A stretch of DNA of 26,263 nt from a virus: the IMG/VR virus record IMGVR_UViG_3300025014_000209; one strand, given 5' to 3'. Every line of letters begins with the position of its first letter. Position 1 is the first letter of the stretch. The notes under the pieces are model-generated. The model did not search any database, was not told where the DNA came from, and saw only the letters and a program-made list of their open reading frames with translations. The translations under genes were made by a program, and so were the position numbers. Shown here piece after piece: positions 250-24,611 of the stretch.

Positions 250-894
250 ATGAGTATCTTAAAAATAAAAAAATTCCTCCTTTCTAACAAGAATATTATT
301 GGTTGTGATCTTGCATCAATTGTTCTTGTTCTTGTTCTTGCTTTTGTTGGAGTCATTAAAACATTATGGCTTCCGATTGCAATTATGAGTTATATTTTTG
401 GTTATATTGCAATTCCAGCAGAAAAAGAAATTAATTTTTTTCACATTAAAGGTGAAAACCTTAATGATTACATTGGATTTGTTTCTAAAATGCAAAAGAC
501 AGTTAATGAATCTAATAAACTTCCTAATGAGGCTAAATCTATTTTTTCTAGTATTTCTAAAAATGCAATTGAACTTCTAACATTTCTACAAAAAGACAAT
601 CAAAATTATAGCTTTAATGAAGACATGCGTAATCTAACTTCAATCTTTGATGCCTATCTTCCAAAAATAATTAATCAATATGAGCGATTTCCATCCTCTT
701 ATGCAAATGATGTTAAAGCCTCTAATGGAAAGACAGCTAAGACAATGTTAATTGAACAGTTAGAAATTTTGGAAAAACAAGTTCAAGAAATTTCTTATGG
801 TATGTATGAAAATGACATGACTGCACTAAAGGCTAATGGTTACTTTCTTAAATCAAAATTTTCTCAAAATAATTTGTTTGAGATTAATTCTTGA
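250..894 (+). CDS. Membrane-anchored XpaC-like (5-bromo-4-chloroindolyl phosphate hydrolysis family-like) protein
   Basis: Two N-terminal hydrophobic helices, then YLPKIINQY...GKTAKTMLIEQLEILEKQV...D..AL...GYFLKSKF, a pattern recalled for this family. Confidence 0.6.
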   Translation: MSILKIKKFLLSNKNIIGCDLASIVLVLVLAFVGVIKTLWLPIAIMSYIFGYIAIPAEKEINFFHIKGENLNDYIGFVSKMQKTVNESNKLPNEAKSIFSSISKNAIELLTFLQKDNQNYSFNEDMRNLTSIFDAYLPKIINQYERFPSSYANDVKASNGKTAKTMLIEQLEILEKQVQEISYGMYENDMTALKANGYFLKSKFSQNNLFEINS

Positions 895-1736
895 TTAATT
901 TAAAATATAATGGCAACAATGAAGTTGTCATTATTCAAAATAATAATGTTATTTTCCAAATAACATCCAATCATATTGATGATTCTATTTGTGAAGCAAT
1001 TAAATATGCTTTAAATTCTAATTTTCTTATTTTAAAATTTTCTTGTTTCCCTAAGCAAATAACAAAAATATTAGACATTTGTTATGGTAAAAGTTTTGAA
1101 AACAAGTTTAAATATGCGACATTGAATATTGAAAAATTTATTCAATTTATGATTGAAAAATTTTATAACGAAAAACAAACAATTAAAAAACTTGTTTCTC
1201 TATTGAGTCCTATTCAAAAAATTGAACATGACCAATCTCTTTCTATCAAGTTAAACCCACCTTATATCATTACACAATATATGAAAATTGGTGCAAACAT
1301 TTTGAAATCAGATAAATTTATTAAGCCTGATGTTTCCTTTTTTACTGATGCATCAGTAAGTTCTAAAACTTATTTAGCTGGATATGGTGTCTCTGGCCAC
1401 AATGTTGTTGCTAGCTTTAGAAAAAAAGACTCTACCAATGATAATAATATTGCAGAACTTAAAGCCATTAGTATGGCTATTTATCTTGCAAAAGATATGA
1501 ATGTATCATCTCTTGAGATATTCACGGATTCAGATCCGTCTATTATGTTACTTAAAAAGTATAAAATTAATCCACAAAATGTAAAAAATGAATTTAAAAA
1601 CATTTTGGAAGAAATTTCTAACAATTTAGAACTATTTGAATTTTATCAAATTGCCTGGATTCCTAGACAAAAAAATAAATTTGCTGACTATATGTCAAAA
1701 GAAAACTTTCCAACTAATTTTCTTAACCTTGTTTGA
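891..1736 (+). CDS. RNase HI-like domain protein with an unknown ~145-aa N-terminal domain
   Basis: FFTDAS (D1), NNIAELKAI (E), IFTDSD (D2) and WIPRQKNKFAD (D3) give the full RNase H DEDD motif set. The TTG start overlaps the previous stop (TTGA). Confidence 0.85.
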   Translation: MINLKYNGNNEVVIIQNNNVIFQITSNHIDDSICEAIKYALNSNFLILKFSCFPKQITKILDICYGKSFENKFKYATLNIEKFIQFMIEKFYNEKQTIKKLVSLLSPIQKIEHDQSLSIKLNPPYIITQYMKIGANILKSDKFIKPDVSFFTDASVSSKTYLAGYGVSGHNVVASFRKKDSTNDNNIAELKAISMAIYLAKDMNVSSLEIFTDSDPSIMLLKKYKINPQNVKNEFKNILEEISNNLELFEFYQIAWIPRQKNKFADYMSKENFPTNFLNLV

Positions 1737-2985
1737 TTTTATGCTTTGAACTCTCTTTATTTGTATCTCTTAATTTATTTAAAAAATCACCAATATCAGG
1801 TTTTTGCTTTATTTCAATTGCAACCTTTGTAGCATTACTTGATTCAGAAGTTAAATTTGTTTTTAAATGTAAAAAATCTATTTTCTGTTTATTTATATTT
1901 TTCAATGAATTTGTTAATCCATCTTTCTTACCAATTTGAACACCTAAATAATCTTGATTAACAAATGTTTGTGCAATCAATTTGGCTCTTTCATCTAGAA
2001 CCATTTCATTACCATCTTTCCTATAGTAGAAAGTTAATTCTTTAGCTATTGTTTTTAATTCTGCCATACCTGGATTTTTATTTTTAGCATAAACACTAGA
2101 TGCTATACGAATAGCTTTTTTATATTGAGATAAAGCATCATAACCAGCTTTATAAGCAGCATAAGTTAAAACTTCTTGTTGGTGTTTACCCATTTTATCA
2201 AACACCCCTTCAAACGATAACCTAGCTTGTTCTTTATATTCAGCTTGTGTTCTTTTTAGTAAAGCAACACCCTGTTTAATCGTAATTAATTGCTTATCTT
2301 CTGAAGCTAATCCTTTATTAAACTCTTTTATTCCAAAATTTAATTTATTTTGAGGTAATTTTGCAATATCAAGAATTTTTTGAATTTTTTCATGAGATAA
2401 GCCAATAGCAGATAAGTCATTCACCACAACAATTGTTGAACTTCCAATTCTTTTCGATATATTGTAACCAAAACCAATATTTAGTCCAGTTGCTGGATCC
2501 TTATGTAAATCTCCACGAAAACCTTCCATTTCAGCAGCAAGAGCAATAAAATTATTTTTACCTAAAAAAGCTTTTGAAACATCTCTTTGATTTTCAATAT
2601 CTGTAAAATTAATATTTACATGTTCTTTTTTTAAAATATTTAATGCACTCTCAAATCCATTATTTTCAACAACAGATTTATTATTTGTAGAACTTACTAA
2701 TAATTTTTCAGCATTAATATCTATTAGTTTCCCAACACTAAGATTACTTAAAAGAGTAGTATCTTTTAATTCAGCTAAATCTGCCGAACTAAATGCCCCA
2801 AAGCCTGCCAAACCTGCTATTAAACCAGTTGCCATTCCAGTTGCCATTCCAAATTTAAATTTAGATACGGCTCTTGAATACCAAGGCTTAACCCCAACAT
2901 AGGATATTTCATGACTTTCACTGCCATAAACCAAGCTCTTGGCTTCCTCTAATAGTTTGTTATTTTTCGTCAATTTAGCCACCAA
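1723..2985 (-). CDS. Lysozyme-fold (GH24/T4L-like) putative muramidase with a Gly/Ala-rich hydrophobic N-terminal segment
   Basis: EMEGFRGDLHKDPATGLNIGFGYN matches the E-x8-D...IGxG lysozyme motif. The hydrophobic segment is GMATGMATGLIAGLAGFGAFSSA. Confidence 0.6.
   Translation of the reverse strand: MVAKLTKNNKLLEEAKSLVYGSESHEISYVGVKPWYSRAVSKFKFGMATGMATGLIAGLAGFGAFSSADLAELKDTTLLSNLSVGKLIDINAEKLLVSSTNNKSVVENNGFESALNILKKEHVNINFTDIENQRDVSKAFLGKNNFIALAAEMEGFRGDLHKDPATGLNIGFGYNISKRIGSSTIVVVNDLSAIGLSHEKIQKILDIAKLPQNKLNFGIKEFNKGLASEDKQLITIKQGVALLKRTQAEYKEQARLSFEGVFDKMGKHQQEVLTYAAYKAGYDALSQYKKAIRIASSVYAKNKNPGMAELKTIAKELTFYYRKDGNEMVLDERAKLIAQTFVNQDYLGVQIGKKDGLTNSLKNINKQKIDFLHLKTNLTSESSNATKVAIEIKQKPDIGDFLNKLRDTNKESSKHKIKQG
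2825..2850 (-). repeat. 12-bp in-frame tandem duplication (GMAT-GMAT) in the lysozyme-like gene
   Basis: CCAGTTGCCATT occurs twice in tandem on the + strand. Confidence 0.8.
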
Positions 2986-3325
2986 ATCTTATTTTTCTTT
3001 TCCCTTCTATACTTACATGTAAAACTGCACATACTTCTGATATTTCGTTTGTATCTTCAGATAATCCAGCTATTAAAATTCTTTTATCTCTTATTTCCTG
3101 TAAGTTTTGATTATCTAAATCCTTAAAAACAATCAACTCTTTACCATTCTCATTTGTTATAACTAAATCATACATTGAATTATTTTTTTCTTTAGCAAAT
3201 ACATAAACAGATTCTAGGTCAACAAGCTTGTTAGAATCTGCTAAAGAATAAGTTATTGCAACAGATTCCGCTTCTTTTTTATTTACTATTTCATAATTTT
3301 CTATAATTGATAAAGATGTTTCCAT
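2975..3325 (-). CDS. Hypothetical protein, overlapping and probably co-transcribed with the lysozyme-like gene
   Basis: 116-aa ORF with ATG start and an 11-nt overlap with the downstream gene. Confidence 0.75.
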   Translation of the reverse strand: METSLSIIENYEIVNKKEAESVAITYSLADSNKLVDLESVYVFAKEKNNSMYDLVITNENGKELIVFKDLDNQNLQEIRDKRILIAGLSEDTNEISEVCAVLHVSIEGKRKIRFGG

Positions 3326-3430
3326 ATTTTTCCATATTAGTTGGTCTTACTCTATACTAAAGAAATTAAATTAATAATCAATCTATTATATATATTTATA
3401 TTAATAAATAATGAGGTTAATGTTTATTTT

Positions 3431-4201
3431 TTAAACTTCTAAACAAAACTTAGGATTAAAACTTTCATTTTCTTGCTTATATTCATATTTTGAATATCCA
3501 CGTGGATTACATATCACTCTTGATTTATTAATTAAATAATCAAAAGAATCATGAGTATGACCATGAATCCAAAAATCTGACAGATTAATTAATTCATCTA
3601 AATCATTCGCAAAAGCTGGATTTAATTGGTTTCCTAAATATTTTTCATGCACACTTTTTAAACTTGGTGAATGATGAGATATTACAACCTTTTTTAAATT
3701 TTTATTTTCAATTAATTTATTCTTAATATAACTTTGAGCAACAATGCTTAAAGATGCACAATTGCTTGGTTGAAACCACCAATGAGCATACCTTATTTGT
3801 GAAAAATCATTAATTCCATTCATTGCTTTATTCATATAGAATCCAATTTGTTCTAACTTATCACCATAAAGTCTAAAATCTGTCCAAAGAGTAGACCCAA
3901 TAAAAACAACATCTTCTATTTGCACAGTATCGTTATCTAGGATAATAATACCTAAACTTTTAGAATATTGTTTTAATTCAACACTTAATCTAGAAAGATG
4001 ATGACCATAAAACTCATGATTACCAGGCACATAAATTATATGCTTATAATCTTTTTTATATTGAGATGCATACGTTAATCCAGTTAATCCATTTCCAATA
4101 TCACCAGCCAATATTAACACATCAGCATCTTGAACAGGAAGTGGGTAATTTGAATATTCTATATGTAAATCAGAGACAATATGTAATTTCATTTTTTTCA
4201 C
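3431..4201 (-). CDS. Calcineurin-like metallophosphoesterase
   Basis: SDLH, AGDIG, PGNHE, SHH, HGHTH and NPRGY motifs, all in the canonical order. Confidence 0.92.
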   Translation of the reverse strand: MKKMKLHIVSDLHIEYSNYPLPVQDADVLILAGDIGNGLTGLTYASQYKKDYKHIIYVPGNHEFYGHHLSRLSVELKQYSKSLGIIILDNDTVQIEDVVFIGSTLWTDFRLYGDKLEQIGFYMNKAMNGINDFSQIRYAHWWFQPSNCASLSIVAQSYIKNKLIENKNLKKVVISHHSPSLKSVHEKYLGNQLNPAFANDLDELINLSDFWIHGHTHDSFDYLINKSRVICNPRGYSKYEYKQENESFNPKFCLEV

Positions 4202-4254
4202 CTAATTATTTTTGTTCAACACTATAAAGAAATATCAAGATTTACTTATATATG

Positions 4255-4307
4255 TAAAGTTTTTCGACACTTGATTAAAGTTTTTCGACACTTGATTAAA
4301 GTTTTTC
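4255..4307 (+). repeat. 21-bp tandem direct repeat (TAAAGTTTTTCGACACTTGAT x2.5) in a divergent promoter region
   Basis: Two perfect copies (4255-4275, 4276-4296) plus a partial third. The second copy overlaps a TTGATT-N16-TATACT promoter candidate (4292-4319). Confidence 0.9.
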
Positions 4308-4359
4308 AAGCATTATACTATATATTGGGAGTTAAAAATATTATTATAATAAAAATAAA

Positions 4360-5130
4360 ATGGATACAAAATTAAAAGAATTAAATAAGACAAATATTCC
4401 TCAATTAACGTTACAGTATTTCAAACACCATTATACTGTAGAATTTTTTAATTCACAATTAAAATTTAATGAGGACATTGCTAAAAAGAGCTATCAATTA
4501 AGACATCAGGTATATTGTGAAGAATTAGGATTTGAATCTTCTAATTATTCTCGTTGTGAAACTGACCTTTATGATGCTAATTCGGCTGGCTGTTTAATTT
4601 CTACAAAAATATCTAAAGAACCAATTGCTAGTGTTAGATTGATTCAACAAATTGACAAAACGATTGAACTTCCATGTTTAAATTCTTTCCGAAGAGAACA
4701 TCCCGAAGAATATAATGCTGTTCAATCAAATATTGAAACTAACAATTATGCAGAAATATCTAGACTTCTTATTTTAAATGATTTTCGTAGTAAGTCTTCA
4801 AATAATGATCATAATCCATTAACAACCAACTATTTATTATTAAGTCTATTTGCTTCCACGATGATTTTATCAGAGAATCTTGATTCCATGTTGTTTATGT
4901 GTGAAACAAAAATGCTTGCTCTCTTTAAAAAAATTGGATTCCCATTTCACTTGTTAAGTCAAAAAAGAATTCATCATAAAGGTGTTAGGGTTTTAATTAA
5001 AATAATTCCTAAAGAAGCTCTTCTTTATATGCACACAGACAATCCTCATATGAAAACAATAGTTGGATTAATTCAATATATGCAAGATGAAAAGCCACTC
5101 AAATTATTTGAATCTCTAAGCTATCATTAG
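4360..5130 (+). CDS. LuxI/FeeM-like GNAT acyltransferase (N-acyl amino acid synthase / exosortase-associated acyltransferase family)
   Basis: LRHQVYCEELGFE, ETDLYD, SVRLI and EISRL match the conserved R, E-x-D-x-x-D, R and E-x-S-R residues of this fold. Confidence 0.75.
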   Translation: MDTKLKELNKTNIPQLTLQYFKHHYTVEFFNSQLKFNEDIAKKSYQLRHQVYCEELGFESSNYSRCETDLYDANSAGCLISTKISKEPIASVRLIQQIDKTIELPCLNSFRREHPEEYNAVQSNIETNNYAEISRLLILNDFRSKSSNNDHNPLTTNYLLLSLFASTMILSENLDSMLFMCETKMLALFKKIGFPFHLLSQKRIHHKGVRVLIKIIPKEALLYMHTDNPHMKTIVGLIQYMQDEKPLKLFESLSYH

Positions 5131-5765
5131 CTTAATCGATGATTTGCCATCACCATTTGTGATTTAAGAATAAACTTAATATTTTCATAAATATATTCTT
5201 GTTCAACATGAATATGCTTAGCCTTCTTTAACATTGGGATAATGAAATCTTTTGTTTCAGTAATGTAAGAAATTTGTTTTTCTTTTGTAAAAACAGGATG
5301 CATTGTTTGGTGATTATTAATTCTATCACCCCCCTTAATTACACTTGCAATTGGACAATGTGCCATTTCTTCGAAATAAAGCTCCATCTCTTTCTTTTCT
5401 CCACGATGCTTTTTTGTTAGCAATCTAACAGCATCACTAATTTTTTTCCCAAATAATTCTTCAATTTCTTCAAAAGAAATATCATAGTCTTCTGGAACAT
5501 CATGAAGAAGTGCCGCAGCAAATGTAGCTCCAGGATACATGAGGCCAGTGTAAAGTGTTCGTAAATAATGAACAATTTCAATTTGATGTTGAAATTCTGG
5601 TGTCTTACCATCTTTTCTTAAACCAATATGAATATTTTTAGCATATTCCAATGCTTTTAGAGCTGGAATATACTGATGGTCATTTTGAGAAATTCCAATC
5701 AACCAATAACGCACTGCAATAAAAAGGCTTTGATAGCTATTGTCATTACCCATTAGTTCTTGCAT
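5127..5765 (-). CDS. RelA/SpoT-type HD domain protein (small alarmone hydrolase, Mesh1-like)
   Basis: A...H.G..RKDG..PE..H, AALLHDVPED and KGGDRINN motifs. Start moved from 5843 to the ATG at 5765, which has an AAGGGA SD-like sequence upstream. Confidence 0.85.
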   Translation of the reverse strand: MQELMGNDNSYQSLFIAVRYWLIGISQNDHQYIPALKALEYAKNIHIGLRKDGKTPEFQHQIEIVHYLRTLYTGLMYPGATFAAALLHDVPEDYDISFEEIEELFGKKISDAVRLLTKKHRGEKKEMELYFEEMAHCPIASVIKGGDRINNHQTMHPVFTKEKQISYITETKDFIIPMLKKAKHIHVEQEYIYENIKFILKSQMVMANHRLS

Positions 5766-5915
5766 TTTACATTCCCTTAAGTTAATTTCTCTCTGAGGAT
5801 TAATTATATCATATAAAACATCAATTAAAATGAATTTATCCACTTTAATTACTTGACCTAATTAACATTCCCACATAATATATATTTAAATAATCATTTT
5901 TAAAAAAGGAATTAA

Positions 5916-6608
5916 ATGAACATCCAAACACTTACTGAAGAAATTCAACATAAACTTAAACACCTGGTTTCTATTCAGCTTCCTAAACATCTTAAATCTA
6001 TTGGAGATAATACAGAGGTGGATAATGATACTGAAACATCTATTTTTATTACTAACTTAACTTTTGATGTTAGTAATAAAATTATTAAAGAAAAATTATC
6101 AAAAATGAACCCAAAGCCATTAAATTTTATTTTTCATATTGATAGAGAAAAGTATTTTGAGCAAACGGCTAAAGAATTAATGCTTCAAATTAATGAGGAA
6201 ATAATCTATTTTGATCACGATACAATTGATAAAACAAAAGAATCCTTTAGGGGTGGGAGCACTTTTGATATTACGTTTAATGGTTACTTTCTTGAAGATT
6301 ATGGATATATTGGAACTAAAAAAATTTTACAAACAGAAGAAATTACAGATATTTGGTTTCCAGCCATTCTTGCTTGTCTTAAGTTTCGTGAAGATTCAGA
6401 TACAGATGCATCTGAAACTCTAAATTTTATTAGAGATTTTGTTACTTTTGGATTTAAAAAAGCATTGGCTATGGAAAATGTTTTTATTGATTTTGAAAAA
6501 ATGAACTCAAGTCTACTTTCAGTGTCCTCTATCTCTGTTGGACAAAACACTCTTACCCCAGAACAGTTTATTGAATTTAGAAAAGAAAATAAGCTTGGTA
6601 AAAATTAA
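5916..6608 (+). CDS. Hypothetical protein
   Basis: 230-aa ORF with an AAGGA SD. No motif recognised. Confidence 0.8.
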   Translation: MNIQTLTEEIQHKLKHLVSIQLPKHLKSIGDNTEVDNDTETSIFITNLTFDVSNKIIKEKLSKMNPKPLNFIFHIDREKYFEQTAKELMLQINEEIIYFDHDTIDKTKESFRGGSTFDITFNGYFLEDYGYIGTKKILQTEEITDIWFPAILACLKFREDSDTDASETLNFIRDFVTFGFKKALAMENVFIDFEKMNSSLLSVSSISVGQNTLTPEQFIEFRKENKLGKN

Positions 6609-6651
6609 AATTTATGATTATTTAACTGAAGAATTCTAATAATAGCTTCTT

Positions 6652-7194
6652 TTATTTGTTTTCCAAATCTTGTTTAAAATTTTTATCATATTTGGAAAAC
6701 AATTTAAATAACACTTCATTTTTACTATGTTTAGTTATTAGGCTTAATTCTGCATTACTAATTTCAGATAAATAAACAATATCCATAAAATTTATTAAAT
6801 TATTTCTTCTTAGATGATTCGTAATATATCTTCCCAATATATATGATATGCCACCTAAATTATCCCAATACTCTAAGAATTTAGATGCTACAGGAATTCT
6901 TTTAAATCCCCAACTTAATACTTGAACTATAATTACATTCAACATTAACCAAGCAGTATCTATCAGCCAATGATTTACAATTAACCAAATTTGGCCTAGG
7001 TTTTTTTCTATTTTAGAAATATCATTTATGTAACTAAAAATATTTGCTCCTTCAAAATAATTGAAACTATTTTTTATCCAAATACCTAAAATTAATAAAA
7101 CAAATAATTTCAACATAATTAAAATTAATTTATATGTCATAGTAAATTGAGAAAAAGTCATAATTAATATCCTTATTATTTTTAAAAAATACAA
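6652..7194 (-). CDS. Hypothetical membrane protein (start uncertain, possibly 7161)
   Basis: 180-aa ORF with 2-3 hydrophobic stretches. Confidence 0.65.
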   Translation of the reverse strand: MYFLKIIRILIMTFSQFTMTYKLILIMLKLFVLLILGIWIKNSFNYFEGANIFSYINDISKIEKNLGQIWLIVNHWLIDTAWLMLNVIIVQVLSWGFKRIPVASKFLEYWDNLGGISYILGRYITNHLRRNNLINFMDIVYLSEISNAELSLITKHSKNEVLFKLFSKYDKNFKQDLENK

Positions 7195-7212
7195 ATAAAT
7201 CTGTTAAAAAGC

Positions 7213-7247
7213 AACACACTTAGTTGATTATTAAAACTAAGTGTGTT
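7213..7247. promoter_or_regulatory. 35-bp palindromic operator (candidate NrtR site) over the nadD-nrtR promoter
   Basis: AACACACTTAGTT-N9-AACTAAGTGTGTT, with perfect 13-bp arms. Nearly identical to 9054..9088. Confidence 0.8.
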
Positions 7248-7252
7248 ATAAT
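7224..7252 (+). promoter_or_regulatory. sigma70 promoter for nadD-nrtR
   Basis: TTGATT-N17-TATAAT, also with an extended -10 TG. Confidence 0.75.
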
Positions 7253-7273
7253 ATTATAATAATTAGGAGATTT

Positions 7274-7795
7274 ATGAGAAATATTGGTTTATTCGGTCTA
7301 ACAGGAAACCCCCCACATATTGGGCACCTTAGGGCTGTTGAAGATGCACTATTATCTTGTGAGCGTGTTTTTGTTACTCCCGTTTTTATTCATCCCTTTA
7401 ACAAGGAGTTTATTGAATATGAGCAACGCCTTAAAATGATTACCATGTTATTTCAGCATTTAAAATCGGTTGACATTATTGAACTAGATAAAAAATTTTA
7501 TATGGAAAAACAACAAATTCCATACAGTTATGATTTGCTTACTTATATTAAACAAGAAAAATCAATTGATGCAAAATTGATTATTGGTGAAGATAATTAT
7601 AAAAAAGAAATTTGGGAAAAGTTTTATTCTTATGATAAAATAGATAATGAATTTGGTGTTATTGTTATCAAAGATTCAGGAGAACACAGCACACAAATTA
7701 GAGACTTTTGCAAAAACAAAGATTGGATTAATGTTGAAAAATGTTGTAGTCCACTAGTTACAGCACATATTCGTGACAATTTACTTTATATTTGA
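7274..7795 (+). CDS. nadD: Nicotinate/nicotinamide mononucleotide adenylyltransferase (NadD-like)
   Basis: GLFGLTGNPPHIGH (HIGH motif), PFNK, R..M and LIIGEDN motifs. The ATG at 7274 has an AGGAG SD, so it is preferred over the track start at 7241. Confidence 0.85.
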   Translation: MRNIGLFGLTGNPPHIGHLRAVEDALLSCERVFVTPVFIHPFNKEFIEYEQRLKMITMLFQHLKSVDIIELDKKFYMEKQQIPYSYDLLTYIKQEKSIDAKLIIGEDNYKKEIWEKFYSYDKIDNEFGVIVIKDSGEHSTQIRDFCKNKDWINVEKCCSPLVTAHIRDNLLYI

Positions 7796-7807
7796 TTGGA
7801 GTTATTC

Positions 7808-8494
7808 ATGCCTAAATTTAAACCAGAAATTCAAAAATTCATTTTTCCAGTTAGTGTCGATCCTGTTATTTTTTCCATTATTGACAATCAACTCCATGTT
7901 CTTCTTGTTAAACGAACACACGGAGTTTTTAATGGGAAATATTCTCTTCCTGGTGGGTTAGTTAGCCAAGAAGATACTAGTCTTGAAAATGCTACTGCTC
8001 GTGTCCTTTCGGAAAAGACTGGTGCTAAAGTTAATTATGTTGAACAATTATTTACTAGAAGTGGTCATGACCCTCGTGGTCCAACTATCTCTATTGCTTA
8101 TATTGCTTTAGTTGATAAGCAAAGTGTTGTCTCTAATGCTGTTTGGAAGCCAATTAGTGAAATTAAAAATACTTCTCTTGCATTTGATCATAATCATATT
8201 ATTGACTTAGCAGTTAAGAGATTAACTGACAAAGTTAATTACTCAACACTTCCAATGCACTTTTTACCACACCCATTTACACTTCCAAAACTACAACAAG
8301 TTTATGAAATTATTCTTGGTGAACCTCTTGATAAAAGTACATTCAGAAAGAAAATTGATGAAACTGGTGTGCTTTTTGAAACTGGCGAACAAATTAAAGA
8401 AGGAGCTTATCGCCCGGCTAAACTTTATTCGTTAGTTAATGATATTGTATTTAATTTTGATAGCAATATTTTAAAATCTTCACCAAAACCTTAA
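7808..8494 (+). CDS. nrtR: Nudix-related transcriptional regulator (degenerate Nudix domain plus wHTH)
   Basis: SVDPVIF..LLVKR, a degenerate Nudix box (LPGGLV...RVLSEKTG), DPRG, LAFDH..II..A..RL, and a C-terminal FTL..LQ.VYE.ILG..LDKSTFRKK...YRPAKLY. The ATG at 7808 has a GGAG SD. Confidence 0.9.
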   Translation: MPKFKPEIQKFIFPVSVDPVIFSIIDNQLHVLLVKRTHGVFNGKYSLPGGLVSQEDTSLENATARVLSEKTGAKVNYVEQLFTRSGHDPRGPTISIAYIALVDKQSVVSNAVWKPISEIKNTSLAFDHNHIIDLAVKRLTDKVNYSTLPMHFLPHPFTLPKLQQVYEIILGEPLDKSTFRKKIDETGVLFETGEQIKEGAYRPAKLYSLVNDIVFNFDSNILKSSPKP

Positions 8495-8511
8495 TTTTTA
8501 ATACATTAACC

Positions 8512-8520
8512 TGTTATAAT
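8512..8520 (+). promoter_or_regulatory. Extended -10 promoter (TGtTATAAT) for the two small genes at 8561 and 8826
   Basis: TG-N-TATAAT lies about 40 nt upstream of the ATG at 8561. Confidence 0.5.
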
Positions 8521-8546
8521 TCTTTTAAAACATAATATACAAAACT

Positions 8547-8824
8547 TTTGGAGTAAAATAATGAACGAACGAATTGAAGCACTTGCTAAACAAGCTGGTA
8601 TGGTAATGTATCCCACTGGGCTTGGTATCAGCGAGAATACACTTTGGGGTGACCGCAATATTGGCAAATTAGCCGATTTGATTATTCAAGAATGTGCTAG
8701 AATTGCACGAGCAGTCCCGTGTCCGTATGAAGATAAAGAGGCAAGAGATCGGCTTGGCCATACTTGGGATATTGCCTGTGTTGAATCAGGCAATAGCATT
8801 ATTAAACACTTTGGAGTAAAATAA
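8547..8824 (+). repeat. 15-bp direct repeats TTTGGAGTAAAATAA (8547-8561 and 8810-8824) bracketing the 8561 gene
   Basis: Exact 15-bp match. Each copy contains the GGAG SD of the following gene. Confidence 0.8.
8561..8824 (+). CDS. Small phage-type hypothetical protein (MNERI..LA.QAG...HFGVK)
   Basis: 87 aa with a GGAG SD. The N- and C-terminal patterns resemble a small-protein family I recall from phage genomes. Confidence 0.75.
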   Translation: MNERIEALAKQAGMVMYPTGLGISENTLWGDRNIGKLADLIIQECARIARAVPCPYEDKEARDRLGHTWDIACVESGNSIIKHFGVK

Positions 8825-8825
8825 C

Positions 8826-9032
8826 ATGTTAGGAATGTCAGAATACCAACTTGATTTAATGTTTGAATACATTGATGGCAAAAGCGACAATCACCCAGGA
8901 CAAGGAACATTGGAAAGAATGGCTCAAATTCGTAAATTGCTTCTTGACGATGCACGAGCAAATGAAGAACAATTGGATAAAATCTCTGCTAGTATTGATA
9001 AAATGAGAGCAGAGTCTCTTAAGTTTAAATAA
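8826..9032 (+). CDS. Small hypothetical protein
   Basis: 68 aa. Starts 1 nt after the previous stop, and its SD lies within the end of that gene. Confidence 0.7.
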   Translation: MLGMSEYQLDLMFEYIDGKSDNHPGQGTLERMAQIRKLLLDDARANEEQLDKISASIDKMRAESLKFK

Positions 9033-9053
9033 TCCAACTTATTAAAAATAAAC

Positions 9054-9088
9054 AATACACTTAGTTGACAAACTCAACTAAGTGTATT
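9054..9088. promoter_or_regulatory. 35-bp palindromic operator (candidate NrtR site) over the pncB promoter
   Basis: AATACACTTAGTTG-N7-CAACTAAGTGTATT, with perfect 14-bp arms. Confidence 0.8.
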
Positions 9089-9093
9089 ATAAT
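9065..9093 (+). promoter_or_regulatory. Consensus sigma70 promoter for pncB
   Basis: TTGACA-N17-TATAAT, an exact consensus match. Confidence 0.85.
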
Positions 9094-9121
9094 TCATTCA
9101 TCGTAATTAAATAGGAAAAAA

Positions 9122-10315
9122 ATGAAATTTAAACAACAAAAATTCGTTCCAATTATTGAATCTCTTTTGGATACTGACTTATACAAATTTACTATGCAAC
9201 AAGCTGTCATGCACCAGTTTCCAAATGCAAGTGATGTTGAATTTCACTTTAAATGTCGTGACACAAATATTAATATGGTTCAGTTTATTGATGAAATCAA
9301 TCGTCAAATTGACCACCTTTGCACACTCAAGTTTAGTGAAGAAGAATTAAATTTCATGGATAGTCTTCGTTATACCACTGATGACTATATTGCTTTTTTG
9401 AGCATCTTCAAACTTCAACGCAAATACATTAATATTATCGCTCTCAATGAAAATGAAATTGATGTTGTAATTCGTGGCCCATGGGTTCATACCATTTTAT
9501 TTGAAGTTCCAGTTCTTTCTATCATTAATGAAGTTTACTTTCGTCAAACTCAAAATACTGAACATTTTGTTACTGGTCGTGAACGTCTTCAAGTAAAAAT
9601 TCAAAAAGTTTGTGAACTTAATAATAAAGAATTTAAATTCTCTGATTTTGGAACTCGTCGTCGTTACAGCCGTGATTGGCAAGAAGAAGTTATTGTTGCA
9701 TTTAAAAATGCATTACCTGATAATTTTACAGGCACTAGCAATGTTCTTTTTGCTATGAGGCATAATCTAACCCCTATTGGGACTATGGCCCATGAATTTT
9801 TACAAGGTTGCCAAGCACTTGGTCCTCGGCTTCGTGATAGTCAAAAGTTTGCTTTTGACAAATGGGTGCAAGAGTTCCGTGGAGATTTAGGTATTGCTCT
9901 TACTGACGTGATTGGTATGGAAGCATTTTGTGCCGATTTTGATTTGTTTTTCTGTAAACTATTTGATGGTGTTCGGCACGATAGTGGCGACCCTGTTATT
10001 TGGGGTAACAGAATGATTGAACACTATGAAAGTATGAAAATTGACCCTAAAACAAAAATTTTTGTTTTTTCTGATGGCTTAAATATTGATAAATCAATTG
10101 AACTTTTTCAAACCTTTTATGGTAAAGTTAAAACATTTTTTGGTATTGGAACCAATCTAACTAACGACATGGGTGTTAAAGCTCTTAATATTGTGATTAA
10201 GATGACTTCATGCAATGGTTCTCCAGTTGCTAAAATTAGTGACTCACCTGGAAAATCAATGTGTAAAAATGAAGAATATTTAGCTTATCTTCGTCAAGTT
10301 TTTTCTGTTAAATAA
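9122..10315 (+). CDS. pncB: Nicotinate phosphoribosyltransferase
   Basis: SLLDTDLYKFTM, FSDFGTRRR, GTSN, GTMAHE, ALTD, GVRHDSGDP, FSDGL, FGIGT and VAKISDSPGK motifs. Full length at 397 aa. Confidence 0.97.
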   Translation: MKFKQQKFVPIIESLLDTDLYKFTMQQAVMHQFPNASDVEFHFKCRDTNINMVQFIDEINRQIDHLCTLKFSEEELNFMDSLRYTTDDYIAFLSIFKLQRKYINIIALNENEIDVVIRGPWVHTILFEVPVLSIINEVYFRQTQNTEHFVTGRERLQVKIQKVCELNNKEFKFSDFGTRRRYSRDWQEEVIVAFKNALPDNFTGTSNVLFAMRHNLTPIGTMAHEFLQGCQALGPRLRDSQKFAFDKWVQEFRGDLGIALTDVIGMEAFCADFDLFFCKLFDGVRHDSGDPVIWGNRMIEHYESMKIDPKTKIFVFSDGLNIDKSIELFQTFYGKVKTFFGIGTNLTNDMGVKALNIVIKMTSCNGSPVAKISDSPGKSMCKNEEYLAYLRQVFSVK

Positions 10316-10338
10316 TACAATTTAAATCAACGTAAAGA

Positions 10339-10375
10339 AAAAGACTCATGTCATCATCATGAGTCTTTTCTTTTT
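10339..10375. terminator. Probable bidirectional intrinsic terminator between pncB and the convergent gene
   Basis: 12-bp stem AAAAGACTCATG/CATGAGTCTTTT with a 7-nt loop and T/A tracts on both sides. Confidence 0.85.
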
Positions 10376-10391
10376 ATTGTCCTCAAATTTT

Positions 10392-12044
10392 TTATTTTTC
10401 TAAAGATTTATTTAATATTTCAAATGTTTTTTTATTTAATAATTTTAATTGAATTAATGTATTTTTCTTTACTTCAATTGGATCTTTAGTTCTTGTAAAC
10501 TCTAAATAGTTTTGAATCGTTCTACTTAATAATTTTGGCAATATATTTTTTATATAATCAAAATCTTGAGACTCATTATCCCCCTCAGTATATATTGTTT
10601 TGAATTGTTGAGCTTCAAAAATTATAGAATCTATATAGTTTTTTATTTCAACATCTTTAATATCTTTAATCGTTGCTTTTGTTATTTTTGATGTAGATGG
10701 CTGATCTATCTTTTCCTTCATCTCAATTAAAGGTTTTTCTGATTCTTTTATTACTTCTTCATTCTTTACTAATATTTTAACTTTTCGTTTTGGTTCATCT
10801 ATAATTCCATTATCAATTAATATATTTAATAGCTTATCATGAATTCGTATTCCCTTAAATGAAACTTCATCCATTTCTCTCTTATAGTGAAGAATTAAAC
10901 TATTTAAAGTATTAATTGATGCATGTAAATTTAAACCATTAGCCTTCATCCAAATAGAAAAAGGATGTGGATCATTATAATTAACTGGAGAAATAAACCT
11001 AAATAACTTATCTAACATAACAGATGTTGGATTTATTGTATTATTTGTTTTTTCTCTTACTGCATCAAATAATTTTGAATTATCCAAGGATAGTAATTTA
11101 TTTATTATTTTTTCTCTATCAAAAAAACTTGAATTAAATGATTGATGTGAAAAAAGTGCATCATAAATTACATTATCATAGAAAATACTTATTATTTCTT
11201 CTGAAATTAATATCCCACATAAATCATTAATCTGTTTTTCTGATAAACTTCCATAATTTAATACACTTGTTATTTTTTCTATTTTTTCGGTTGTTTCTAG
11301 ATTTTTATCCTCTAAAATCAATTCAATCCAAGTATATTCTTCTTCTTTTATTTTTATCTTTAATTCGAAATTAATTTTATCACCAAAATCTTTTAAGAAA
11401 TTATTTAAATATTTTTGTGATAATACATCTTTTTCAATTAAAATTGAATGAAGAAATGTTCCACTTACATTATATTCTTTATAAATTTCACCAAATCCAT
11501 TAATATCTAATCCATGCTTTACAATTATTCTTTTTATAAACGAATAGTCTCTATTCATCTTTGAATATAATAATCTCAAAACCAAACTAGAATCAAAATT
11601 TACCTTATCTGAATACTCTAATAACTTCTCTATGGACTTAGTATCATTTGCCTCTATTTGTTGAATTAAAAAAGAACGATTTGACTTCAAATCTTTATCT
11701 AATCTAAATTGATTTAAATATTCTGCATAATCATATTTTTCAAACATTAATGAATTTAAGAATAAAATATTTTCACAACCATTTAAAAAAGCTTTTTTTT
11801 CTTGCTTATTAAATCTTTCATCATCTCTAAAAAATGGAATTAAAGCATCTAAAAATTCAAGCATTTTGTTTTTATCCAATAATCCCCTTAAGTTATCTAT
11901 ATTTAATAGCTTAAAAAATTTACCCATTAAATCTTGATGTTCCTTAATTTGGCGATTTCTTTCAGCAACGAGTTCAAACATTATCTGAAAATCGTTGGAA
12001 TCAAACAAGTCTTTTATAATCTCTTTGCTTTCTTCTTGTGACAT
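10392..12044 (-). CDS. Large hypothetical protein with a C-terminal XpaC-like helical domain
   Basis: 550-aa ORF. The C-terminal IKNILPKLLSRTIQNYLEF...LIQLKLLNKKTFEI aligns by eye with the 250..894 protein. Confidence 0.75.
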   Translation of the reverse strand: MSQEESKEIIKDLFDSNDFQIMFELVAERNRQIKEHQDLMGKFFKLLNIDNLRGLLDKNKMLEFLDALIPFFRDDERFNKQEKKAFLNGCENILFLNSLMFEKYDYAEYLNQFRLDKDLKSNRSFLIQQIEANDTKSIEKLLEYSDKVNFDSSLVLRLLYSKMNRDYSFIKRIIVKHGLDINGFGEIYKEYNVSGTFLHSILIEKDVLSQKYLNNFLKDFGDKINFELKIKIKEEEYTWIELILEDKNLETTEKIEKITSVLNYGSLSEKQINDLCGILISEEIISIFYDNVIYDALFSHQSFNSSFFDREKIINKLLSLDNSKLFDAVREKTNNTINPTSVMLDKLFRFISPVNYNDPHPFSIWMKANGLNLHASINTLNSLILHYKREMDEVSFKGIRIHDKLLNILIDNGIIDEPKRKVKILVKNEEVIKESEKPLIEMKEKIDQPSTSKITKATIKDIKDVEIKNYIDSIIFEAQQFKTIYTEGDNESQDFDYIKNILPKLLSRTIQNYLEFTRTKDPIEVKKNTLIQLKLLNKKTFEILNKSLEK

Positions 12045-15358: not shown

Positions 15359-15472
15359 TTTTTCTTAAAATTATTTTCAGTTTAGTCAATAATAAAAATC
15401 CTTGTTTAAAGGTTAAAATAAGTTGACATCAAACAAGTAATTAGATTAAACTGAAAATAATTTTAAGAAAAA
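15359..15472. repeat. Perfect 26-bp inverted repeats flanking a 62-bp spacer between divergent genes
   Basis: TTTTTCTTAAAATTATTTTCAGTTTA (15359-15384) and its exact reverse complement (15447-15472). The spacer holds a further CTTGTTT/AAACAAG pair. Confidence 0.9.
15423..15452 (+). promoter_or_regulatory. sigma70 promoter candidate for the 15480 operon
   Basis: TTGACA-N18-TAAACT. The -10 lies inside the right repeat arm. Confidence 0.55.
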
Positions 15473-15479
15473 GTATCTT

Positions 15480-15713
15480 ATGGCAATTTTAAATTTAAAT
15501 ATCATTCTCACTGAAGAACAAACCAAACTTTATTCTGATTGGATTAAACCAATTGTTAAGGGACATTTTGATGAAGAAGTCGAATTCCCAGGAGTTACCT
15601 ATACAATTGAAACTTCTCCATGTTTTGGAACTACTCTTATAATTTCAGTTGGTTCAGTTTCGATTGAATTTGAAATAGAGATGGAAAATGATAAAACTAT
15701 TCTTTCTCAATGA
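15480..15713 (+). CDS. Small hypothetical protein
   Basis: 77 aa. Its stop overlaps the next start (ATGA). Confidence 0.7.
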   Translation: MAILNLNIILTEEQTKLYSDWIKPIVKGHFDEEVEFPGVTYTIETSPCFGTTLIISVGSVSIEFEIEMENDKTILSQ

Positions 15714-16267
15714 TTATTAAAACATATTCTTATATTAACTTAATTGAAAATAAAGATAAAATATTATCTCGTATAGATTTAATTAAGAAGTTAACATTAA
15801 ATGAAACAAGCTACACTTATTTTGAATTAAATGATGACAATATTATTCGTAAAACTACACGAATAAAATCAAACAATATCAACTATGGGAAGATTACCAA
15901 ATCTCAAAAGATTGAACTTTGTAGAATTGTTACAAAAGCATTTTATTTAGGAATAACCCATGGAGATCTTAATCGTAAAAATGTATTTATTGATTTAAAT
16001 CAAAATATTTTTGTAAGCGATTGGGAACCATCACTTATTCAAATAGTAAATGGTAGAAAAACACTTATGGGAACTAAACCATGGATTGATTATCAAGACT
16101 TAGAGAATAAAAGTATAGGTGTTAGAACCGATTTAGTCGGATTTTATAAAATAATTACAGACTGCAACAAAGATTTTTTTAATTCATCAAATTGGGAAAA
16201 CCTCATTCTTGATTCATTAAAAACCAAATCACCATTTGAATTTTTACTTAAAAACCAACAAATATAA
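15710..16267 (+). CDS. Minimal protein-kinase-like protein
   Basis: HGDLNRKN catalytic loop, SDWE (DFG equivalent), MGTKPW and DLVGF. Confidence 0.7.
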   Translation: MIIKTYSYINLIENKDKILSRIDLIKKLTLNETSYTYFELNDDNIIRKTTRIKSNNINYGKITKSQKIELCRIVTKAFYLGITHGDLNRKNVFIDLNQNIFVSDWEPSLIQIVNGRKTLMGTKPWIDYQDLENKSIGVRTDLVGFYKIITDCNKDFFNSSNWENLILDSLKTKSPFEFLLKNQQI

Positions 16268-16278
16268 CAGGAGCTATC

Positions 16279-17904
16279 ATGATTGAAAAAATAACGAACA
16301 AACAAATAAATGAAGTTGTCGACCAACTTTTTAATAATGATTTTGAAAATCTACCAGATTTTTTCCCCAAAATAGATTCTATAATTTTAGCAAAAGCACT
16401 TATAAAATCTAAAGCAACTAGAACATATAACTCCACAATATCTTTACCTTGTGATTATCTTGAAGATAAAATAGAAAGTATTTTAATTCATATTTCAAAT
16501 GCTCGAAAAAAATTAAATGGTGAACAATTTGATTTATTATGGAAAATTTTTGATGCTAATTTAGATATTAGTGTTTGGGCTGGTGAAACATGGGTTCCTA
16601 AACTTTTACCTAATGGTGCTATAGCAATTAGAAATCATCATCGTGTTATTGGAATTAGCAATGATACAATGGGAACTCTTGATTATGATAATATTAAAAT
16701 TAGAAATGACTTACAAGAGGTGTCTGACTATATTTTAAATAATGAAACAGAAAATAAAGAGATAGCTTTTAGTATTATTCATCATAATGACTTAGGGATT
16801 ATTTGGACACAAACAGTACCTAAAAAACTATCTGATTATGGTCAATCTGTTGTATTTATCAGTATGGACTTAATTAATAAAATGGTAGAAGATGATATTA
16901 TTAGTGAGGATAATTCTCTATTAGAACAAATAGTTAATGATACAGCATCTAATTCAAGAACTTCACATTGTGTGTTAAGAATATTTAAAAATAAGACATT
17001 CCTATATAATACATATAGAGCTAGTGATGAATATGACACAATTTTAGAAAACTATTCATTATACTTAGGCGATAACTTAGACGAAGAAACAGTTCATCCT
17101 TCAAAAATAAATTCTGACACATTTTCCCTTAAAATATTTATCAAAGAATCTATTCTTGACCATGAATTACCTCAAATATTAGAAACAAAAACACTTCGTA
17201 AAGATGTTATTTTAAAAACATTATTAGAAGATAAGATTTACAATGGATATGCAATGAAAAAAGCATATCAATATCTAGACTTTATACCATTTTTTCACAA
17301 ATATATAGGTCAACCGACTACATATTGTGGCAATCCTCAGCCATATTTTTCGTTGTCACAAAAACATAATGACAATTTATTTGTTATTCAAAGCAATATT
17401 GATTGCTTAACTAAAATATCTGGTGGGGAATCAAAACTTAAAAAAACGATACAAAAATTAATTAATTTTGTTCCAACAACTAAAGTAAAGATACATCTTC
17501 CTTTAGAAAAAATAGACAGCCAATCTATTGTTTATGATGATGATATTTTTGATTTAGGGTCTAAAGAATTTGATAAAAGAATTAAAGAATTTTTTAAATT
17601 TGTTAAACAAGAATTCGAAAAAACATTAAATCCTAATGAAAATATTATTAATTTAGAAGATGAAGAAACAAGCTACTTAGAAGGTTATGGTTATGAATAT
17701 TCATTTGCCTTAATCTTCATAACCGATGATGCTCCATGTATTAAAGATTGTCATCAATATGCCTTAGCTATGTCCAATGAAACAAAATCAAATTTCACAT
17801 TAATAATCCCACAATATGGATATAATCAAGGTTATTCATGCGGAGAACTTGATACTGGAAACTATATGTCTTTTATGCTTGAAAAAGAAGATGATGATGA
17901 ATAA
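16279..17904 (+). CDS. Large hypothetical protein
   Basis: 541-aa ORF with an AGGAG SD. No motif recognised. Confidence 0.85.
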   Translation: MIEKITNKQINEVVDQLFNNDFENLPDFFPKIDSIILAKALIKSKATRTYNSTISLPCDYLEDKIESILIHISNARKKLNGEQFDLLWKIFDANLDISVWAGETWVPKLLPNGAIAIRNHHRVIGISNDTMGTLDYDNIKIRNDLQEVSDYILNNETENKEIAFSIIHHNDLGIIWTQTVPKKLSDYGQSVVFISMDLINKMVEDDIISEDNSLLEQIVNDTASNSRTSHCVLRIFKNKTFLYNTYRASDEYDTILENYSLYLGDNLDEETVHPSKINSDTFSLKIFIKESILDHELPQILETKTLRKDVILKTLLEDKIYNGYAMKKAYQYLDFIPFFHKYIGQPTTYCGNPQPYFSLSQKHNDNLFVIQSNIDCLTKISGGESKLKKTIQKLINFVPTTKVKIHLPLEKIDSQSIVYDDDIFDLGSKEFDKRIKEFFKFVKQEFEKTLNPNENIINLEDEETSYLEGYGYEYSFALIFITDDAPCIKDCHQYALAMSNETKSNFTLIIPQYGYNQGYSCGELDTGNYMSFMLEKEDDDE

Positions 17905-20404: not shown

Positions 20405-20554
20405 TTACACAGATATAAGACCTGGCATTAAAATCAAGCCCCTCCGAAATCTTGTTGATTTTTGTGTGGGGTTTTCTATTAAATCGTTATAAATCAACAA
20501 GTTATATAAATTCAATTTTTACCACAAAAAAGTTTTTAGTACAGAAATGAAAAA

Positions 20555-21773: not shown

Positions 21774-21824
21774 TTTAAATCCTAAATATACCTTATTTTA
21801 ACATTTAATTATTAAACTACAATA

Positions 21825-24031: not shown

Positions 24032-24038
24032 ATTTCCC

Positions 24039-24611
24039 TTAAATTTTTACTTTATTTATTTTTTTATCTTGGTTCTTCAATAAATTAACCCATTTTTCAA
24101 TTTGATTTTCTACATCTTCTTTTGATTGTGTAATATCTATTTTATTTTCAAAGCGCTGAATATATCCCTTAGGCAAAGTGATTAATGCATCGATACCTAA
24201 ATATTTAGCTACTACTGCACCAGATAAATCTACTCCTGTTTGACCACCTGTATAAATTTTTTCTATTGGCCAATATTGATGCACCTTTTCAATTACATCA
24301 CATACAAAATTATTAATATGTTCTTGGCTACAATTATGGCTACTTAATGTATAAATTCCATTTCCAGCTATATTTAATGTTTTTGCATTTTTTGCCTTCA
24401 TGAATTTGTATAGTTCACGAGCAACCGTTATTGTTTCTGTATCATCTGTTAATAAGAAACCAATATATTTGTCTCCTGCCGCCTTATGTGTTAACTTTTC
24501 TCCAGCAGTTTCTAAATTGACGGCAAGAGCTAATGTTACATCTCCAGATTTCGCATTGAAGTATGTTCTTGGACTATATTTTTCGCTTGTATGTTCTTGT
24601 ACTATAACCAT
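24039..24611 (-). CDS. SLOG-superfamily (YpsA/cpYpsA-like) nucleotide-binding protein
   Basis: YSPRTYFN, TAGEKLT, LNIAGN and IYTGGQTGVD...P.G motifs. The ATG at 24611 has a GGAG SD, so it is preferred over 24653. Confidence 0.75.
   Translation of the reverse strand: MVIVQEHTSEKYSPRTYFNAKSGDVTLALAVNLETAGEKLTHKAAGDKYIGFLLTDDTETITVARELYKFMKAKNAKTLNIAGNGIYTLSSHNCSQEHINNFVCDVIEKVHQYWPIEKIYTGGQTGVDLSGAVVAKYLGIDALITLPKGYIQRFENKIDITQSKEDVENQIEKWVNLLKNQDKKINKVKI

Follow-up and report, generated by a model that had tools for sequence, protein, structure and literature searches.

Relief of DNA binding and repression by ADP-ribose is a trait of the NrtR repressor family, and the gene orders listed for its regulons include #pncB-nadD-nrtR and nrtR-nadD<#>pncA-pncB-nadE (Rodionov 2008, Table 1; PMC2330246). 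In Pseudomonas aeruginosa, nadD2-nrtR stands divergent from pncA-pncB1-nadE (PMC2330246), and the NADase toxin NatT derepresses the NrtR regulon (PMC11535050). The cyanobacterial arrangement, #pncB-nadD-nrtR(-nadE), is one operon with one operator (Rodionov 2008, Table 1). The NrtR of Shewanella oneidensis (PDB accession numbers 3gz5 and 3gz6) regulates prs-nadV, the salvage II genes. Preiss-Handler clusters have also been reported from jumbo phages, for example pncB-nadD-nadE of Kuafu_71 (PMC11662467). Three phage pathways, NARP1 (Adps and Namat), NARP2 (Nampt and Nmnat) and NARP3 (PnuC and a NadR-like enzyme; PMC13464706), have the common aim of raising NAD after depletion.

The locus compared here with these systems lies in a window of 26,263 nucleotides, the whole stretch of DNA that was analysed, which together with another 9 kb makes up a 35,256-bp IMG/VR record (IMGVR_UViG_3300025014_000209; G000). 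The features of the module and its surroundings are:

6652..7194, minus strand: small predicted membrane protein, 169-180 aa, divergent from the nadD promoter, with hydrophobic N-terminal segments
7216..7244, unstranded: predicted NrtR operator 1, exact ACACTTAGTT-N9-AACTAAGTGT; the palindrome reaches 7213-7247
7224..7252, plus strand: promoter of the nadD-like/nrtR operon, sigma-70-type (TTGATT, 17-nt spacer, TATAAT)
7274..7795, plus strand: NadD-like nucleotidyltransferase, 173 aa, short VPA0413/PRK08887 type; Pfam CTP_transf_like, 3.5e-8
7808..8494, plus strand: NrtR repressor, 228 aa, start ATG 7808; Pfam NrtR_WHD, 5.8e-23, and NUDIX, 4.3e-8
8561..8824, plus strand: ORF87, small conserved protein of 87 aa, higher in G+C than its surroundings
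8826..9032, plus strand: ORF68, 68 aa, starting two bases past the ORF87 stop
9057..9085, unstranded: predicted NrtR operator 2, exact ACACTTAGTT-N9-AACTAAGTGT; the palindrome reaches 9055-9087
9065..9093, plus strand: pncB promoter, sigma-70-type (TTGACA, 17-nt spacer, TATAAT; 12/12 consensus positions)
9122..10315, plus strand: PncB, nicotinate phosphoribosyltransferase, 397 aa; above the NF003704 and TIGR01514 cut-offs
10339..10369, unstranded: hairpin with a terminator score on each strand, separating pncB from a convergent ankyrin-like gene

The combination of nadD-nrtR with pncB is the layout of the classic bacterial NrtR regulon (Rodionov 2008, PMC2330246). As in P. aeruginosa, a NadD-type gene is co-transcribed with nrtR (PMC2330246, PMC11535050), pncB comes under the same predicted repressor, and the operator sits on the promoter; nadE also belongs to the predicted regulon in G001, the closest relative readable in full. 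Unlike its P. aeruginosa counterpart, the present cluster lacks pncA and has as operator a 29-bp palindrome centred on TTG-N7-CAA; two small ORFs and a gene for a small predicted membrane protein accompany it. Neither pncA nor nadE, nor a Nampt or Prs/Adps-like gene, was found anywhere in the 35,256-bp record, which extends to the entire record what the first-pass annotation had stated for the window and agrees with its view that PncA and NadE would come from elsewhere. The cyanobacterial unit has the same three genes under NrtR control, whereas the present genes form two transcription units, each with an operator, and encode a proteobacterial-type PncB. The likeness to S. oneidensis NrtR lies in the degenerate Nudix box and the winged helix, but that protein recognises another operator sequence. 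The jumbo-phage clusters share with the present one the grouping of pncB and nadD on DNA called viral, but they come from genomes > 200 kb and include nadE, and a viral origin is unsupported for the present record; NrtR or its operators are mentioned nowhere in that report (PMC11662467). The ORFs of the 35-kb record include none of the NARP1, NARP2 or NARP3 enzymes, and in comparison with those pathways the route here is deamidated, incomplete alone and repressor-gated.

The assignment of the three genes as a nadD-like, nrtR and pncB cluster, made from the letters alone in the first-pass annotation, is borne out by matches to protein families and PDB entries; of its gene models the identities stand, and the start of the nadD-like gene is corrected from GTG 7241 to ATG 7274, which is preceded by an AGGAG ribosome-binding site. 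The best PDB match of the encoded protein is 3h05, followed by NadD structures. Its scores against NCBIfam NF006479 (81.5 bits, cut-off 164) and TIGR00482 (60.1 bits, cut-off 112.45) fall short of the NadD equivalog cut-offs, and it is therefore named NadD-like. The HxGH (PPHIGH) and SxTxxR (HSTQIR) nucleotidyltransferase motifs are invariant in 5 relatives. Its substrate is probably NaMN, and possibly NMN as well.

NrtR comprises an N-terminal Nudix-like sensor and a C-terminal winged helix (PF21906, NrtR_WHD), and residues 15-213 of its 228 align with Shewanella NrtR 3gz5 (E value 4e-40). The Nudix box is degenerate, reading RVLSEK in place of the expected REUxEE in the alignment. The score against NCBIfam NF050029, 159.6 bits, is below the equivalog cut-off of 400 and denotes similarity at the family level only. 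No NrtR more than 46% identical was found in any GTDB species genome.

PncB exceeds the cut-offs of two curated models, with 566 bits against NF003704 (cut-off 379) and 483 bits against TIGR01514 (cut-off 269.55). The closest PDB entry is 1yir (E value 6.5e-116), and identity to the PncB of Acinetobacter and Comamonas is 50-54%. The GTMAHE segment (G220-E225), including its histidine, is invariant in 25 sequences; this histidine we take to be the one phosphorylated in enteric PncB.

The module is likely to be the regulon for NAD homeostasis in an uncultured, AT-rich bacterium whose genome measures ~ 2.2 Mb, and not a viral counter-defence device. In IMG/VR the 35-kb record is classed as viral, with direct terminal repeats and a CheckV completeness of 100. 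Its 126-bp ends are identical and their junction cuts no gene. Pfam and PHROG scans of its ORFs revealed no capsid, portal, terminase, integrase, replication or lysis gene, and a six-frame search with the capsid and portal families PF05065 and PF04860 gave no match. Megablast of 25 kb against phage and plasmid records yielded no close relative, and pncB was the sole match in a distant blastn search of such records. IMG/VR scans with the single NrtR or PncB protein returned nothing, and an alignment-based scan proved necessary. All ten proteins that were looked up, taken from around the whole circle, recur on one 98,683-bp contig, and a 35,102-bp contig carries a variant of one protein of the record. 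A small number of its genes resemble those of phages: one that matches phrog_10079 (3e-56), an RNA ligase with a PHA02142 domain and an RNase H. The look-up of a 541-aa ORF in the Atlas was uninformative (scores ≤ 0.83).

The chromosomal setting is seen in G001, an IMG/VR 'provirus' of 180,807 bp. It has 14 genes in common with positions 250-12044 of the window, of which 13 run contiguously at 129-141 kb, with the ankyrin-like gene apart from them at 112-114 kb. The PncB and NrtR of G001 are 100% identical to proteins P0141 and P0010, both recorded on one contig of 2,230,803 bp. G001 further encodes a beta-type two-piece tmRNA, ArgRS, NadE and IcmW, along with photolyase, GGDEF, LemA and SBP domains; housekeeping genes are sparse. 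In this 180-kb slice, over half of the ORFs carry a striking C-terminal tail. Transfer-messenger RNA and aminoacyl-tRNA synthetases can occur in huge phages, and a huge-phage fragment was considered for G001 on the strength of the CheckV value (28%), the tmRNA, ArgRS and PHROG matches to endonucleases and a clamp loader. That reading was dropped because PncB and NrtR are identical to the proteins of the 2.23-Mb contig and because searches for capsid, portal, terminase and integrase genes gave nothing. Neither G001 nor the 35-kb record contains capsid, portal or integrase genes, and Terminase_6N (PF03237), for which G001 was the only element searched, had no match. G001 is a slice of the 2.23-Mb bacterial contig.

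The 35-kb record is best taken as bacterial DNA listed as virus, probably either a plasmid-like circle or a repeat-bounded chromosomal segment. Counting against a bacterial reading are the IMG/VR label, the repeat ends with their intact junction and the phage-like genes; the 35,102-bp variant contig, a possible sign of a discrete ~ 35-kb element; the contigs of 160-360 kb that carry ORF87 homologues; and the sparse housekeeping genes of G001, along with the occurrence of tmRNA and aminoacyl-tRNA synthetases in huge phages and the lack of a GTDB NrtR above 46% identity.

Of the alternatives, an authentic plasmid or episome of 35 kb belonging to that lineage of bacteria, with NAD salvage as an accessory function alongside candidate secreted effectors, survives best, yet it is unlikely. 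The identical ends and the variant contig of nearly the same length would both suit it, as would the K-x-K-I C-terminal tail, typical of the lineage, that five proteins of the record bear. Against this, the scans of the record turned up no gene for Rep, Par, a relaxase or conjugation, and the 14-gene block is chromosomal in the relative. The ten sampled proteins also lie on the 98.7-kb contig, which a 35-kb circle fits only as a concatemer, and a repeat-bounded segment would equally yield recurrent ~ 35-kb contigs with identical ends.

That the record is a phage, or part of a huge phage bounded by repeats, with the module serving an auxiliary or counter-defence role, is improbable. Here Sir2 or TIR cleavage would release ADP-ribose, which would derepress the phage PncB and NadD-like enzyme, and host PncA and NadE would finish NAD. 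The virus label with terminal repeats, the PHROG matches, the reported jumbo-phage Preiss-Handler clusters (PMC11662467) and the PncB and NrtR homologues of huge phages (LR756500, LR756501, LR756511, LR756504, Atu_ph07, Phosso and Bacillus phage G) speak for it. No hallmark gene for virion, packaging, lysis, integration or replication is present in the record, however, and no phage homologue was found for the NadD-like protein. Strand switches between genes are frequent, the products encoded range over DsbB, HU, a protein with a SpoT-like HD domain and the ankyrin-like protein, and the nearest relative is part of the 2.23-Mb contig, with nadE under the same operator. The route would also depend on two host enzymes and therefore cannot rebuild NAD alone. 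The first-pass proposal of a phage or plasmid counter-defence module is not supported, given that no virion, packaging, integration or replication gene was found and that the nearest syntenic relative is a slice of a bacterial contig. Nor is its 'third route' new: the layout is a textbook bacterial regulon, induction by a toxin (PMC11535050) and phage Preiss-Handler clusters (PMC11662467) are already published, and the label of third pathway is taken by NARP3 (PMC13464706). Little is gained for phage biology: the literature already covers the salvage regulon under NrtR, how cleavage of NAD induces it, and Preiss-Handler genes in large phages.

A true circular mobile element of any kind (plasmid, phage-plasmid or satellite) with its own ADP-ribose-gated Preiss-Handler module is an equally doubtful reading of the 35-kb record. 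Were it so, the module would sustain NAD against the NADases of defence systems, toxins or effectors, and a repressor-gated, host-completed salvage route would exist on mobile DNA. Under the bacterial regulon reading, two IMG/VR records, one a terminal-repeat 'complete' genome and the other a 180-kb 'provirus', are flagged as probable bacterial DNA, and the uncultured AT-rich lineage with its widespread C-terminal tail may be the more interesting lead.

A shared operator over both promoters had been claimed and is confirmed as exact copies at 7216-7244 and 9057-9085, each laid over its own promoter at the -35 box and spacer; self-regulation by NrtR through it is supported at the level of sequence. 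The 35-kb record holds two exact copies of ACACTTAGTT-N9-AACTAAGTGT, where 0 are expected by chance, and no further copy with up to 3 mismatches was found in the window, the other 9 kb or shuffled controls. The equivalent of operator 1 is kept before the nadD-like genes of G001, L083, L084 and L085, and that of operator 2 before pncB in G001, L082 and L085. Ten aligned sites from five elements read CTTAGTTG-N7-CAACTAAG, with the -10 box a few bases downstream; they include one before the nadE of G001, ~ 70 kb from its nadD-nrtR/pncB cluster. The operator core is GTTG-N7-CAAC within a 29-bp palindrome, and the usual GT-N7-AC core in a 21-bp palindrome is not matched. The palindromes are very unlikely to be terminators or to serve a different regulator: site 2 was scored as a minus-strand hairpin in the terminator scan and the core spacing is unlike the common NrtR core, but each site overlies the -35 box and spacer of a promoter directed away from it, only the NAD genes nadD-nrtR, pncB and nadE have such sites in five elements in which nrtR is always present, and divergent NrtR motifs are reported for some lineages (Rodionov 2008, PMC2330246). 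This lineage-specific predicted operator, whose TTG-N7-CAA centre doubles as a -35 box, could refine regulon prediction.

In the proposed mechanism of the bacterial regulon, PncB would convert nicotinate and PRPP to NaMN, and the short NadD-like enzyme would adenylate NaMN, and possibly NMN as well; NadE would be encoded elsewhere, as would any PncA of the organism. NrtR, which shares a transcript with the NadD-like enzyme, would bind as a dimer to one 29-bp palindrome per promoter and, by covering the -35 box and spacer, keep RNA polymerase off. Cleavage of NAD would generate ADP-ribose, to which NrtR is expected to respond by release from its sites, so that salvage and the repressor itself would rise together.

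Two further ORFs, both unmentioned in the first-pass annotation, separate nrtR from pncB. ORF87 has 178 metagenome homologues of ~ 80-90 aa; it belongs to no Pfam, PHROG or NCBIfam family, had no match in related loci, and is missing from the module in relatives. The 6652..7194 protein on the other flank keeps its place beside the module in relatives: both G001 and L082, the latter with two copies, have homologues between pncB and nadD/nrtR. It has no Pfam or PHROG family, and a niacin transporter was rejected for this 180-aa ORF on account of too few hydrophobic segments.

Five plus-strand genes lie within 7213–10315, where the first-pass annotation had placed a NadD, PncB and NrtR module that could serve as an inducible phage or plasmid counter-defence route to NAD. 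The clustering of the nadD-like, nrtR and pncB genes was borne out by Pfam, NCBIfam and PDB matches; two small ORFs had gone unmentioned.

Features of the NAD salvage cluster (window numbering)
7274–7795, plus strand: NadD-like nucleotidyltransferase, 173 aa, its ATG preceded by an AGGAG ribosome-binding site
7808–8494, plus strand: NrtR, with NUDIX and NrtR_WHD domains
8561–8824, plus strand: small ORF of 87 aa (ORF87)
8826–9032, plus strand: second small ORF
9122–10315, plus strand: PncB (NF003704, 566 bits, cut-off 379; PDB 1yir, 6.5e-116)
10339–10369: hairpin 3' of pncB, with a terminator score on both strands

The NadD-like protein matches CTP_transf_like (Pfam, 3.5e-8), and its HxGH and HSTxxR motifs are invariant. 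The top NCBIfam model, PRK08887, scores 81.5 bits, below the cut-off of 164; among solved structures 3h05 (VPA0413) ranks first, ahead of NadD structures. A GTG at 7241 falls within the promoter of this gene. Residues 15–213 of the 228-residue NrtR align with Shewanella NrtR 3gz5 (E 4e-40), and the protein carries a degenerate Nudix box, RVLSEK. ORF87 is higher in G+C than its surroundings and has 178 small metagenome homologues, some on contigs of 160–360 kb. The 15-nt string TTTGGAGTAAAATAA at 8808–8822 forms its last codons and the subsequent ribosome-binding site, and a second copy lies directly 5' of ORF87 (8547–8561); ORF87 looks like the remnant of a tandem cassette array.

The palindrome ACACTTAGTT-N9-AACTAAGTGT is matched exactly at 7216–7244 and 9057–9085, and no further copy with up to three mismatches occurs in the record or in shuffled controls. 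Both copies take in the -35 hexamer of a strong sigma-70-type promoter, TTGATT-17-TATAAT at 7224–7252 for the first and TTGACA-17-TATAAT at 9065–9093 for the second, in agreement with the earlier claim that a shared operator covers both promoters. With a repressor on these operators, RNA polymerase would be kept off both promoters, that of nrtR itself among them. The gene parts and this operator–promoter anatomy are conserved: the same palindrome lies on the pncB and nadD-like/nrtR promoters in the five related loci read (L082, L083, L084, L085 and G001, the nearest relative, IMGVR_UViG_3300047323_000673), and the ten aligned sites read CTTAGTTG-N7-CAACTAAG with the -10 box a few bases downstream. 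G001 has a third copy immediately 5' of nadE, ~70 kb from the other two. Conserved in relatives, and present 5' of G001 nadE as well, these predicted sites support on comparative grounds an NrtR regulon that comprises nadD-nrtR, pncB and nadE. The common core of the NrtR family is GT-N7-AC, whereas the operator centre here is TTG-N7-CAA; divergent lineages were also described by Rodionov et al. (PMC2330246).

PncB would convert nicotinate to NaMN, which the NadD-like enzyme is predicted to adenylate, and NadE, encoded elsewhere, would complete NAD. NrtR would repress both promoters until released by ADP-ribose; its binding and ADP-ribose response are inferred from the NrtR family (PMC2330246). 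This gene set and regulatory logic are textbook material: Table 1 of Rodionov 2008 gives #pncB-nadD-nrtR for cyanobacteria, nrtR-nadD<#>pncA-pncB-nadE for Pseudomonas and #nrtR-pncA-#pncB-nadD-nadE for Clostridium (PMC2330246). The trigger proposed in the first-pass annotation is a mechanism already demonstrated in P. aeruginosa, where NAD cleavage by the NADase toxin NatT yields ADP-ribose and derepresses Preiss-Handler salvage (PMC11535050).

The cluster probably belongs to an uncultured AT-rich bacterial lineage, as an ordinary NrtR regulon on DNA mislabelled as viral. G001 (180,807 bp, 27% G+C, CheckV completeness 28%) is labelled a provirus and has 14 genes in common with window 250–12044, 13 of them contiguous at 129–141 kb and the ankyrin-like gene at 112–114 kb. 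It has a two-piece tmRNA of betaproteobacterial type (RF01850, 140 bits) and encodes ArgRS, NadE, IcmW and photolyase; GGDEF, LemA and solute-binding domains also occur. Searches of G001 for a terminase, capsid, portal or integrase found none. At 100% identity, the PncB and NrtR of G001 match P0141 and P0010, two proteins that the protein collection records on one 2,230,803-bp contig. From this identity, the gene content and the absent virion and integrase genes, G001 is a segment of a bacterial chromosome, which makes the NrtR regulon chromosomal there. Both G001 and the window's own IMG/VR record, in neither of which a virion, packaging or integrase gene was found, are probably bacterial DNA mislabelled as viral. 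Two more PncB relatives (69–72% identity) lie on contigs of 2.22 and 2.34 Mb. NrtR proteins 50–72% identical come from metagenome data only, and the closest among GTDB species genomes has 46% identity. Close to the NrtR relative in L083 (57% identity) lie genes for an AhpF-like reductase and a class II aminoacyl-tRNA synthetase.

A single 35,256-bp record (~26% G+C) contains the window, which corresponds to the reverse strand of its bases 8994–35256. IMG/VR classes this record as viral, with direct terminal repeats, and CheckV accordingly gives 100% completeness. The first and last 126 bp of the record are identical, and their junction cuts no gene. That the record is a plasmid-like circle is unlikely, and would leave the function of the module unchanged. 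None of the ~50 ORFs matches capsid, portal, terminase, tail, lysis, integrase, replication or partition families (Pfam, PHROGs). Ten proteins from all round the 'circle' each recur letter for letter on 33–48 contigs, the longest always of 98,683 bp; either the 35 kb belong to a larger DNA and owe their identical ends to a repeat, or the 98,683-bp contig is a concatemer. One of the ten has a variant on a 35,102-bp contig, which is compatible with both. Internal repeats of 87–480 bp and 74–97% identity were seen by self-BLAST, one being a tandem gene duplication (26167–26288 with 34800–34922, 28977–29282 with 31831–32331, and 29326–29804 with 29958–30429; window orientation, beyond 26263 in the remainder of the record, L001). 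Repeats of this kind might have caused the assembly to close falsely into a circle.

A phage counter-defence module is very unlikely and without positive support. The earlier interpretation is thus partly supported: the conserved operators favour NrtR-controlled nadD and pncB salvage, and the absent virion genes and the bacterial nature of G001 speak against its phage part. The record gave no hit in six-frame searches with capsid, portal and integrase models and has no tRNAs. Its frequent strand switches and its genes for DsbB, HU, a SpoT-like HD domain, a GNAT/LuxI-like enzyme and an ankyrin-like solenoid are evidence against a phage. PncB and NrtR homologues are present in huge phage genomes; no phage homologue of the NadD-like protein was found. 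A PncB relative occurs on 424 IMG/VR contigs, on many of them at the edge, a position suggestive of host DNA beside a prophage. The phage pathways NARP1 and NARP2 differ in using enzymes other than PncB and the NadD-like protein, and the published 'third' pathway, NARP3, consists of PnuC and a NadR-like enzyme (PMC13464706). Preiss-Handler clusters (pncB-nadD-nadE) are reported in jumbo phages, in a paper that does not mention NrtR (PMC11662467).

Several further features were observed. In G001, 135 of the 237 ORFs finish with the C-terminal tail K-x(1,2)-K-[I/L/V], as do 5 of 48 in the window's record (window 20649–24611; L001:6913–7815; throughout G001, L242–L251), against a frequency of 0.28% for the motif at internal positions; the tail may act as a signal for secretion or sorting in the uncultured lineage. 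More than half of the 180-kb G001 is occupied by 104 tandem paralogues of ~190–330 aa with a DUF285/BspA-like repeat (FNGDISxWDVSxV; 5.5–129 kb, L242–L248). Near the nadD-nrtR operon of L084, a 704-aa ORF (4792–6906) has a Cas12f1-like TNB domain (TnpB/IscB-like). In the window's record, a 24–28-nt element from the end of the terminal repeat has further copies at 34688–34715 and 20435–20458, and a long inverted repeat (15359–15472; self-BLAST, 75% identity over 122 bp) fills the intergenic space from dsbB to the 15480–17904 operon. Just 5' of the LuxI/FeeM-like acyltransferase gene at 4360, TAAAGTTTTTCGACACTTGAT is repeated 2.5 times as a perfect tandem array with a 21-bp unit (4255–4307), which may be an operator.
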